NCBI GenBank assembly: GCA_963771045.1
Contig: CAVYRW010000004.1
Span: 1,248,001-1,312,000 of the forward strand
Direction of reading: 5' to 3'
Source of the DNA: Waddliaceae bacterium
Lineage (GTDB): Bacteria > Chlamydiota > Chlamydiia > Chlamydiales > SLFE01
Length of the DNA stretch: 64,000 bases
A program made the position numbers and the translations under genes. This document shows positions 17,460 to 19,032 of the stretch, piece after piece (position 1 is the stretch's first letter; each line of letters opens with the position of its first letter). Below the pieces are notes generated by a model, which was not told the origin of the DNA, did not search any database, and was given only the letters and a program-made list of their open reading frames with translations.

Positions 17460-17521
17460 GGCGTTGTTGCATAAATCACCACTGAGACCACCGAGCTCAC
17501 TGAGAGATTATGAGAGAGGAA

Positions 17522-17929
17522 TTAAATGATTAGACGCCTAATCCCATTTTTTAGAAGTTTTACATTGAAATTGATGAGCAAACCTCTGCCACCACCATTA
17601 TGCTTAAGATAGGATAGAAGTTGGGCCTCATGAACAGGCAAGAGATTGGCCACAGATTTTATCTCCAAAATAACCTTATCTTCCACTATCATATCGATCC
17701 GGTAGCCTGAGTCTAGCTTTTTATCACGATAAATAATAGGTACTGGTATCTGCCGGTTAACTTTCAAACCCGCAAGGTTCAACTCGTAGCAAAGACAAGT
17801 TTCGTATGTCGATTCAAGCAAGCCTGGACCTAATCTTCGATGAACTTCAATCGCAGCACCTATGATTTCCCCTGTTAAAAGGTCATTTCTTTTTTGGTTG
17901 GCTTCTTCAGTTGTGTGGGTACTAGTCAT
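17522..17929 (-). CDS. GxxExxY protein (PD-(D/E)XK-like), IS passenger
   Basis: IIGAAIEVHRRLGPGLLESTYE, RIDMIVEDKVILEIKS, AQLLSYL, GLLINF. Confidence 0.92.
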   Translation of the reverse strand: MTSTHTTEEANQKRNDLLTGEIIGAAIEVHRRLGPGLLESTYETCLCYELNLAGLKVNRQIPVPIIYRDKKLDSGYRIDMIVEDKVILEIKSVANLLPVHEAQLLSYLKHNGGGRGLLINFNVKLLKNGIRRLII

Positions 17930-18013
17930 CTTTTCTCCAAAAAGGGCGAATGCGAGCTTGCCGACAAATACCTAATACTCTAATTTTTAGTTGCAACAAA
18001 TTGGAGGATCAAG

Positions 18014-18958
18014 ATGAAGGCAAAATATCGCATTCGCAACTGGAACGACTATAACAAATCTCTTATTCAAAGGGGAAGCATAACTGTTTGGTTTTCTGAA
18101 GATGCTATCAATAAGTGGATGGCTCCAAAAGAAATAGGAAAAAAGGGGCGTCCAAAACTCTATTCTGATGACGCTATTCTCACCGCGCTCATTATTCGAT
18201 CGGTTTTTCATCTTCCATTGAGAGCACTCGAAGGATTTTTGACATCTCTTGTTATGATTTTATCTGTTGGTTTATCGATTCCTTCTTATACTCAAATTTG
18301 TCGGAGAGCTAAGTTGTTGGGGCAAGAGTTGAAGAAACTTTCGAAAAAAAAAGTCACCAATATTGTAATCGATTCAACCGGTTTGAAAGTGTACGGAGAG
18401 GGTGAATGGAAAGTTAGGCAGCATGGAATCAGTAAAAGGCGAACATGGAGAAAGCTCCATCTGGCAGTCTGCCCTGACTCTCACGAAATTATTTTCGAAA
18501 TTCTTACTGAAAATAACGTTGCAGATTGTGAAGTGTATCCAAAACTTCTCGAGGTAATGCCGAAATCAGTTAAGCGCACATATGGAGATGGGGCTTATGA
18601 TACTAAGCGATGCTATGCTGCAAATGTAGTTCACGGCTCAATTCCTATTATTCCACCCAATAGGAATGCTGTTTTTCGAGAAAACATATCTCCTTCTTGG
18701 AAGATGCGGAATATCAGTTTGCTGGAAATTTCAGGTTTAGGAGGTGATGATGATGCAAGAAAATTATGGAAAAAGTTGAAAGGTTATCATCGTCGATCAC
18801 TTGCAGAAACAGCCATGTTTAGATTTAAACGATTCTTTGGAAATGATTTAAGAAGTAGAACTCTGGAAACCCAAAGGGCTGAATCAAGGGCAAAATGTGA
18901 AGCACTAAATATAATGACAAAGCTGGGAATGCCTGAAAGTGAATTAATAGCAGCTTAA
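18014..18958 (+). CDS. IS5/IS903-type DDE transposase, intact
   Basis: NWNDYNKSLIQRGSIT, IDSTGLKVYGEGEW, RRTWRKLHL, GDGAYD, YHRRSLAETAMFRFK. Confidence 0.95.
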   Translation: MKAKYRIRNWNDYNKSLIQRGSITVWFSEDAINKWMAPKEIGKKGRPKLYSDDAILTALIIRSVFHLPLRALEGFLTSLVMILSVGLSIPSYTQICRRAKLLGQELKKLSKKKVTNIVIDSTGLKVYGEGEWKVRQHGISKRRTWRKLHLAVCPDSHEIIFEILTENNVADCEVYPKLLEVMPKSVKRTYGDGAYDTKRCYAANVVHGSIPIIPPNRNAVFRENISPSWKMRNISLLEISGLGGDDDARKLWKKLKGYHRRSLAETAMFRFKRFFGNDLRSRTLETQRAESRAKCEALNIMTKLGMPESELIAA

Positions 18959-19032
18959 ATCAAATCTCTCATATTCTCTCTGTGCGCTCTTGTGAGCTCT
19001 GTGGTTAATTACGCAACAAAGCCCTACACAAC

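Follow-up and report, generated by a model that had tools for sequence, protein, structure and literature searches.

Within the window, by which we refer to the whole analyzed stretch of 64,000 nucleotides from a Waddliaceae genome, a mobile element of 1564 bp was located at positions 17460–19023 between two perfect copies of the 9-bp target-site duplication ctacacaac (17451–17459 and 19024–19032), as read from the sequence and by comparison of copies. The insertion target, which lies outside the element, is a host F-box-like gene, whose 5' part is found on the plus strand at 17119–17459 (PF12937, E 4e-7). The element carries two intact, divergently oriented genes separated by a spacer of 84 bp (17930–18013), namely a gene for a GxxExxY protein of 135 aa on the minus strand (17522–17929) and a gene for a DDE transposase of 314 aa on the plus strand (18014–18958), which belongs to the IS903 group of the IS5 family. 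A second small open reading frame as a possible partner gene was not found in the element. The first-pass annotation had described the IS903-like inverted repeats, the duplication, the length and the two intact genes, all of which were confirmed by sequence, open reading frames and profile matches.

The 18-bp terminal inverted repeats (IRs) are located at 17460–17477 (plus strand, 16/18 positions identical to the IS903B end at locus L404) and at 19006–19023 (minus strand, 14/18 identical). The element starts with GGCGTTGTTGCATAAATC and ends with the reverse complement of GGCTTTGTTGCGTAATTA, which agree in 14/18 positions. The inverted match between both ends extends beyond these IRs and spans approximately 58 bp (17460–17491 against 18992–19023 with 78% identity, and 17493–17517 against 18965–18989 with 88%). 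Inside each IR lies an arm of about 40 bp containing three CACnGAG units, repeated every 9 nt; these inner arms, absent from the first-pass annotation, mark the cargo as a cassette. The left arm (17478–17517, plus strand) reads ACCACTGAG-AC-CACCGAG-CT-CACTGAG followed by an AG-rich tail, is located 3' of the GxxExxY gene and has the orientation of the 3' arm of free cassettes. The right arm (18965–19005, minus strand; ACCACAGAG-CT-CACAAGAG-CG-CACAGAG and a tail) is inverted relative to the left one and fills the spacer between the transposase stop codon and the IR, the length of which is the same as in cargo-less sister elements. Along the strand of the GxxExxY gene, the order is thus IR, 5'-type arm, transposase, gene, 3'-type arm and IR, with 1.45 kb between the two arms. 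The divergent spacer contains a CTTGC...TCTAATTTTT block, which according to the alignment is also present 5' of the transposases in cargo-less sisters and is likely the transposase promoter, although the promoter scan did not call it. Overall, scans of the element yielded no promoters or terminators above chance, and a single chance-level Rfam match (E 0.62). The N-terminus of the GxxExxY protein, MTSTHTTEE, may represent a decayed arm; in many free cassettes (L102, L106, L109, L114 and L116), the 5' arm is part of the coding sequence and specifies TTE-type peptides.

The transposase scored 289 bits against NF033579 (cut-off 140) and is approximately 44% identical over its full length to IS903B transposases, with which its D120, D192 and E265 blocks align. 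Terminal IRs of the GGCTTTGTTG type with a length of about 18 bp were found as well, and the element shares with IS903 and IS903B the GGC(T/G)TTGTTG ends and the 9-bp duplications, the latter being given for IS903B in the accessible part of PMC13618097. However, IS903B is a simple insertion sequence (IS) of 1057 bp with one open reading frame (the group form being about 1.05 kb), whereas the element adds another gene and a pair of inner arms. Because of its 1564 bp and two open reading frames, it is classified as an IS903-group derivative rather than a simple IS.

The passenger is a full member of the GxxExxY family by both available models (TIGR04256, 148 bits with a cut-off of 35; PF13366, PDDEXK_3, 143 bits). 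With an E threshold of 0.001, 21,894 representative proteins match this family, which in the accessible part of PMC3424549 is described as having an unknown function and a history of multiple transfers. In an alignment of 86 homologues, G34, G36, E39, D79 and E89 are invariant and Y42 and K91 at least 90% conserved, which covers the G36-E39-Y42 motif and the predicted PD-(D/E)XK site formed by D79, E89 and K91. The predicted structure (pLDDT 94.5) matched PD-(D/E)XK-type proteins throughout, namely R.SwaI (Z 7.6, rmsd 3.2, 114 aligned residues), BpuSI (Z 7.3), Cas4 SSO0001 (Z 7.2, rmsd 3.7, 99 aligned) and Hjc (Z 6.1, rmsd 3.2, 86 aligned). Foldseek ranked Hjc, AdnA and Cas4 at the top, with no match at E 0.001 or better. 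As all structural Z scores are below 8, they support the fold and not a function. Based on these predictions, the passenger is likely a catalytically intact minimal nuclease. A sequence search for solved relatives gave RelE-type matches only (E 0.38 or worse), which were disregarded. Many of the top homologues (P0001–P0016) have 260–295 aa and two GxxExxY matches, which suggests tandem-domain forms; the active unit is perhaps dimeric. In one RNA run, a single contig of 217 bp covers the gene, but this cannot show transcription.

The first-pass annotation had taken the locus for a two-gene mobile unit and proposed a search for further copies with different duplications. In the host genome (G000, 2.57 Mb), we identified 16 full copies with at least 99.8% identity and 7 variable alignment columns overall. 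All of them (16/16) encode the whole GxxExxY protein and 15/16 the whole transposase, the remaining one having a 1-bp deletion. A perfect and distinct 9-bp duplication was present at 12/16 copies, and that of a 13th copy was found behind an inserted IS256-type element, leaving 3/16 copies without a duplication. Two random 9-mers from this genome were identical at a frequency of 5e-6 (200,000 draws); given this frequency and the 12 perfect, different duplications, the ctacacaac duplication is not a chance match. The 13 duplications show an AT lean only. In another species of the same genus (G001), nine full-length DNA matches including the gene share 99–100% identity with the element, while the DNA flanking them is merely 75–91% identical to G000. 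Here, 4/6 distinct sites examined showed a 9-bp duplication, and two sites are contiguous and empty in G000. These data indicate recent transposition in both genomes as well as a recent transfer between the species. Gene and transposase thus move whole, as one unit, with 9-bp duplications, as the earlier annotation had claimed.

Copies lacking the gene, which would make it a one-off secondary insertion, did not occur among the full copies; the gene in 16/16 copies and the one-clade architecture described below rule this out. Neither G000 and G001 nor the rest of the sampled clade yielded a copy that lacked the gene but had a whole transposase and both ends, and derivatives that have lost the gene through deletion are common. 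A composite transposon or a tandem of two elements was ruled out by the presence of one transposase, one IR pair and one duplication. Similarly, the idea that the IS targets free arms was rejected, the nearest free arm being 27–806 kb away from the 14 chromosomal copies.

Besides the full copies, G000 contains a fragment 100% identical to the element (G000:C4:997659-998663), which begins in the spacer at position 488 and stops at position 1492, among the last transposase codons, has neither arm nor IR, and whose transposase reading frame runs 17 residues further into host DNA. A diverged, internally deleted derivative at G000:C2:86176-86491 has kept both arms, with damaged IRs. Another element of 1398 bp, which we take to be of IS256 type from its ends and open reading frame, has nine copies in G000:C4 (including 792027-793424 and 1701663-1703060), two of which lie inside the element described here. 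Near-identical DNA was also present in salt-marsh and soil sequencing runs; one contig each of the runs X2, which may be the source sample, and X11 covers the element completely or almost completely. The contigs of four runs, which show presence only, contained no joints, inversions or gene-less joined forms. A pattern scan of metagenomes was loose, most of its 119 loci being chance matches; 2/119 had a transposase (L153 with the gene, and L244), and approximately 12 were IR-plus-arm ends or small derivatives. Small gene-less, arm-bearing elements with IS903 ends occur on metagenome and chlamydial contigs (L208, L148, L144 and L170), with one nested in another at L208. At L147 (G002:C68, 3490-3629), a GxxExxY gene and an arm are followed by two degenerate IS903-like ends back to back, 9 bp apart, and then by a further arm, an arrangement that tandem copies may have left behind.

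GxxExxY genes also occur outside of IS elements, where they are bracketed by the same type of arm, in forward orientation upstream of the gene and in reverse orientation downstream. Based on a motif-free test, we found an inverted repeat between the gene's own flanks at 29/41 chlamydial loci and 26/34 loci from other phyla (55/75), compared with 6% of 5,550 cross-locus pairs as a control. Repeats in direct orientation were present at 5/41 and 7/34 loci, respectively. The strict arm motif in the correct orientation was found at 31/46 chlamydial loci, a few of which are IS-borne, versus 0.2% of random windows; since this motif is tuned to chlamydiae (10/35 other-phylum loci found), the motif-free test was used instead. 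Arm-bracketed examples include Bernardetia, Gemmatirosa and Sphingomonas (fabD-GxxExxY-fabG). Because inverted arms also bracket the free genes, the passenger of the IS is a gene-plus-arms cassette. Single arms folded no better than shuffled sequences (z -0.6 to 1.0) and are not hairpins, so that any structure needs two arms. The similarity between left and right arms is 0.80 within elements, modestly above the 0.71 between elements.

A GxxExxY match was present in 154/400 chlamydial genomes and in 23/101 genomes of a Nostoc-centred phylum sample. Among plasmids, eight records had a match, none above 60%, and none of 20 pattern matches in viral contigs was a relative. A transposase accounted for 1/76 open reading frames flanking the sampled chlamydial GxxExxY genes, the neighbors being mostly ordinary genes. 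The first-pass annotation had offered the IS as a mechanism for the spread of GxxExxY genes. The IS does carry the gene, but since most of these chlamydial GxxExxY genes are found among ordinary genes within their own inverted arms, IS carriage is a side route. In G000, free arms outside any IS were detected at C4:856559, 887896 and 1320137; the last of these sites is a gene-less inverted doublet between two genes (C4:1320100-1320260), which offers the two arms that a structure would need.

A quick tree of transposases (55 rows remaining from 118 loci after removal of duplicates and thinning of rows below 47% identity) placed the eight gene- or arm-bearing rows in one clade (SH-aLRT 99), consisting of G000, G001, G260, G011, G301, G288, the metagenome locus L153 and a divergent G000 copy. 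This clade spans 68–100% transposase identity and four chlamydial family codes, and in every member with a readable end the arms lie directly inside both IRs. The G288 copy has an internal deletion and retains both arms; the G011 layout was assembled from two contigs. Gene and arms were absent from all other 47 rows. The cargo-less sisters, with 45–62% transposase identity, reach 3–5 copies each in G084, G330, G256 and G336 among the matches listed. As they are multi-copy, the GxxExxY gene is probably not needed for transposition. G000 itself harbors a second, cargo-less IS903-type family with 44–46% transposase identity to the element and GGGTGTGTTGCCTAATTC ends (C4:48248, 400009, 956428 and 2230311; four copies among the matches listed).

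The comparison with the sisters also allows conclusions on the origin of the element. In the sisters, the left IR is located approximately 110–160 bp before the transposase start, ahead of a CTTGC...T(C/A)TAA(A/T)TTTT block. Since this block is kept in the 84-bp spacer of the element, the gene and the left arm were inserted between IR and block. At the other end, the distance from stop codon to IR amounts to about 55–95 bp in the sisters and 65–76 bp in gene- or arm-bearing elements; given this unchanged distance, the right arm replaced the old spacer, and it would then be a copy from the left end.

The cassette was not captured only once. In G016, it has been picked up independently by an unrelated IS5 subgroup (NF033580), which we take to be of IS427 type. 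These elements have 1395–1415 bp and TTA/TAA flanks and carry the full arm-gene-arm cassette at one end only, between the transposase stop codon and the right end; examination of 10 loci allowed the limits of five complete copies to be set. Their genes group apart from the IS903-borne ones in the tree. Most copies no longer have the ATG, and about 30 additional matches represent truncated genes; the five such loci that were inspected kept both arms, beside ends of the same IS5 type. In two other genomes (L119 and L283), IS903-type ends surround an arm-gene-arm unit without an IS903 transposase, with a nested IS4 at L283. Three units of about 350 bp, each made of an arm, a truncated gene and an arm, were observed in tandem at L392 (G016:C44:93400-95200), where the number of arm units differs between copies, and three tandem GxxExxY-like genes at L393.

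Regarding selection, dN/dS of the passenger was 0.03–0.23 in all pairs with measurable dS, most of the distant pairs being saturated. In the cleanest IS-borne pair (G000 and L146), which is uniformly 89–99% identical over arm, gene and transposase start, 17 synonymous versus 5 non-synonymous codon differences were counted (p = 2e-7). These codon comparisons indicate that the IS-borne GxxExxY gene is under purifying selection. In addition, several observations relate to the exchange of the gene module. In G260, dS is 2.8 in the gene versus 0.44 in the transposase, and identity falls to 76–78% over the gene. A free cassette in G220 lies between dxr and rseP, at a site that in G000 is an empty 6-bp gap, and its protein is 82% identical to that of G000 and nests with it in the tree; the IS-borne proteins of G011 and G301 are less similar to the G000 protein (69–70%) than this free one. 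A single clade of the five IS903-borne genes was rejected (p-AU 0.001) in a test with 34/85 rows and 135 columns, in which the group was named after the quick tree had been seen and the rejection rests on G220 and on G002, the latter possibly a decayed IS remnant. Furthermore, a hybrid copy at G000:C4:1701314-1704285 has one 9-bp duplication and consists of a left part with 99.7% and a right part with 78% identity to the active form, the switch point being located about 20 bp from the IS256-type insertion. These comparisons show that the passenger tree departs from that of the transposase and suggest that the gene module can be exchanged; some of the discordance could stem from ordinary recombination among IS copies.

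The explanation we favor, with a probability of roughly 0.55, is that a selfish cassette of a predicted nuclease and its repeats is nested in an IS903-group IS and is kept there by acting on its own arms. One chlamydial IS903 ancestor would have received the cassette just inside its left end, followed by copying of the arm adjoining the left IR to the right end and decay of the inner 5' arm. As in IS903, the outer 18-bp IRs would serve as cutting sites for the DDE transposase, which probably moves the element alone, because the cargo-less sisters are multi-copy. The GxxExxY protein, with its minimal PD-(D/E)XK fold, would recognize the three-unit arms, probably paired in single-stranded DNA, and nick beside them. 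Subsequent repair from an intact copy would spread the gene module among IS isoforms and free chromosomal sites. Such arm recognition and copying of the module would explain both the conservation of the gene and its discordant history. A bolder version of this idea, which we put forward tentatively and consider doubtful, is that GxxExxY cassettes form an undescribed class of minimal mobile elements, in which a PD-(D/E)XK nuclease of 130 residues would mobilize itself and its three-unit arms. Fusion with IS903 would then have created a two-layer transposon, with the DDE enzyme moving the whole via the outer ends and the nuclease driving a homing-like swapping of modules on the inner arms, repeatedly colonizing IS ends in the IS903 group and the second IS5 subgroup.

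Alternatively, the GxxExxY protein could be a domesticated accessory factor, which binds the arms at both ends and aids or regulates transposition, e.g. by bridging of the ends or strand processing beside the IRs. The first-pass annotation had already considered that the cargo aids transposition. This could account for the position of the arms directly inside both IRs, for the absence of gene-less copies with whole transposase and both ends in G000 and G001, for purifying selection while the gene is IS-borne, and for 16 copies in G000 versus the four listed for the cargo-less family of the same genome. However, several of the sisters without gene and arms are multi-copy, DDE blocks and IRs of the element are ordinary, the gene module appears exchangeable, and the unrelated IS5 subgroup bears its cassette at one end only. 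Overall, we regard this role as unlikely, and it is not the one we favor.

It is even harder to attribute the cassette to selection at the level of the host, in which the nuclease would serve as a defence, addiction or DNA-uptake filter and hosts would keep the IS copies supplying it. Purifying selection, the matches in 154/400 chlamydial genomes and the free arms at three G000 sites would fit, as would the repeat-flanked Ssn nucleases, of which SsnA modulates transformation in Neisseria (accessible part of PMC11893778). However, PADLOC assigned 0 families to the query protein and gave weak Cas4 matches in 10/86 family members (best E 2e-4), the neighbors of free genes are mostly housekeeping or metabolic genes instead of defence islands, and no antitoxin-like partner is present. 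Host-level selection would also not need 16/16 intact copies, though these are too young to judge. The role in defence or addiction suggested in the first-pass annotation therefore found no support in the PADLOC analysis or in a partner gene, and we consider host benefit quite improbable. Finally, a neutral passenger that entered the IS once and was carried along, with its conservation acquired while free, would agree with the lost ATG or truncation in many G016 copies and the common gene-less derivatives, but is highly improbable and for the IS903 clade largely refuted by the codon differences of the IS-borne G000/L146 pair and by the intact genes of G301 and G011 at 68–73% transposase identity.

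The favored reading of a selfish cassette within an IS can be placed beside several known systems. Transporter IS (tIS) are IS derivatives with passenger genes (PMC9330008, PMC7986276, each in its accessible part), and the element works like a tIS, its passenger being enclosed by the IRs and transposing along with the rest. Unlike in a tIS, this passenger has cis arms of its own, one per end, and exchange with free cassettes appears to take place. The openly accessible literature searched on tIS, IS903 and chlamydial IS showed no tIS with GxxExxY cargo, and the accessible parts of the literature searched made no mention of repeat arms or IS carriage of GxxExxY or PDDEXK_3. In its layout, the cargo resembles both REP/RAYT and Ssn/SRM systems, but belongs to neither. 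Ssn nuclease genes, as described in the accessible part of PMC11893778, are small, single-domain, flanked by inverted repeats and patchily distributed across phyla, and the authors likened the Ssn/SRM layout to a mobile element. However, to the extent described there, Ssn proteins are of the GIY-YIG type with hairpin-forming SRMs, whereas the element combines a PD-(D/E)XK protein with non-palindromic three-unit arms within an active IS. With REP/REPIN and RAYT, it shares, as far as the accessible source text goes, a gene flanked by cognate repeats and gene-less inverted doublets nearby and genome-wide. In contrast to RAYT, an IS200-like tyrosine transposase described as single-copy (accessible part of PMC3116915), the open reading frames of the element encode a DDE transposase and a PD-(D/E)XK protein and no IS200-like tyrosine transposase; and, unlike REP sequences, its single arms are not palindromes.

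The importance of the element lies in an intact GxxExxY member with cognate arms inside a recently active IS, which is found at 16 sites and has crossed essentially unchanged into a second species. As GxxExxY is a very large orphan family, the element makes its function testable by mating-out and in vitro cleavage assays. It also shows a probably selfish element that has persisted stably inside another across deep divergence, an arrangement repeated independently in a second IS lineage. Should the nuclease cut its arms with specificity, it would be a site-specific enzyme of very small size.

At the insertion site itself, the element is surrounded by an F-box/LRR cluster (window 15996–21820), with broken LRR open reading frames at 15996–16527, the F-box-like gene starting at 17119 and a gene with F-box and LRR_6 domains at 20066–21820. 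In the corresponding region of a relative, locus L023 represents an independent insertion with a different duplication.
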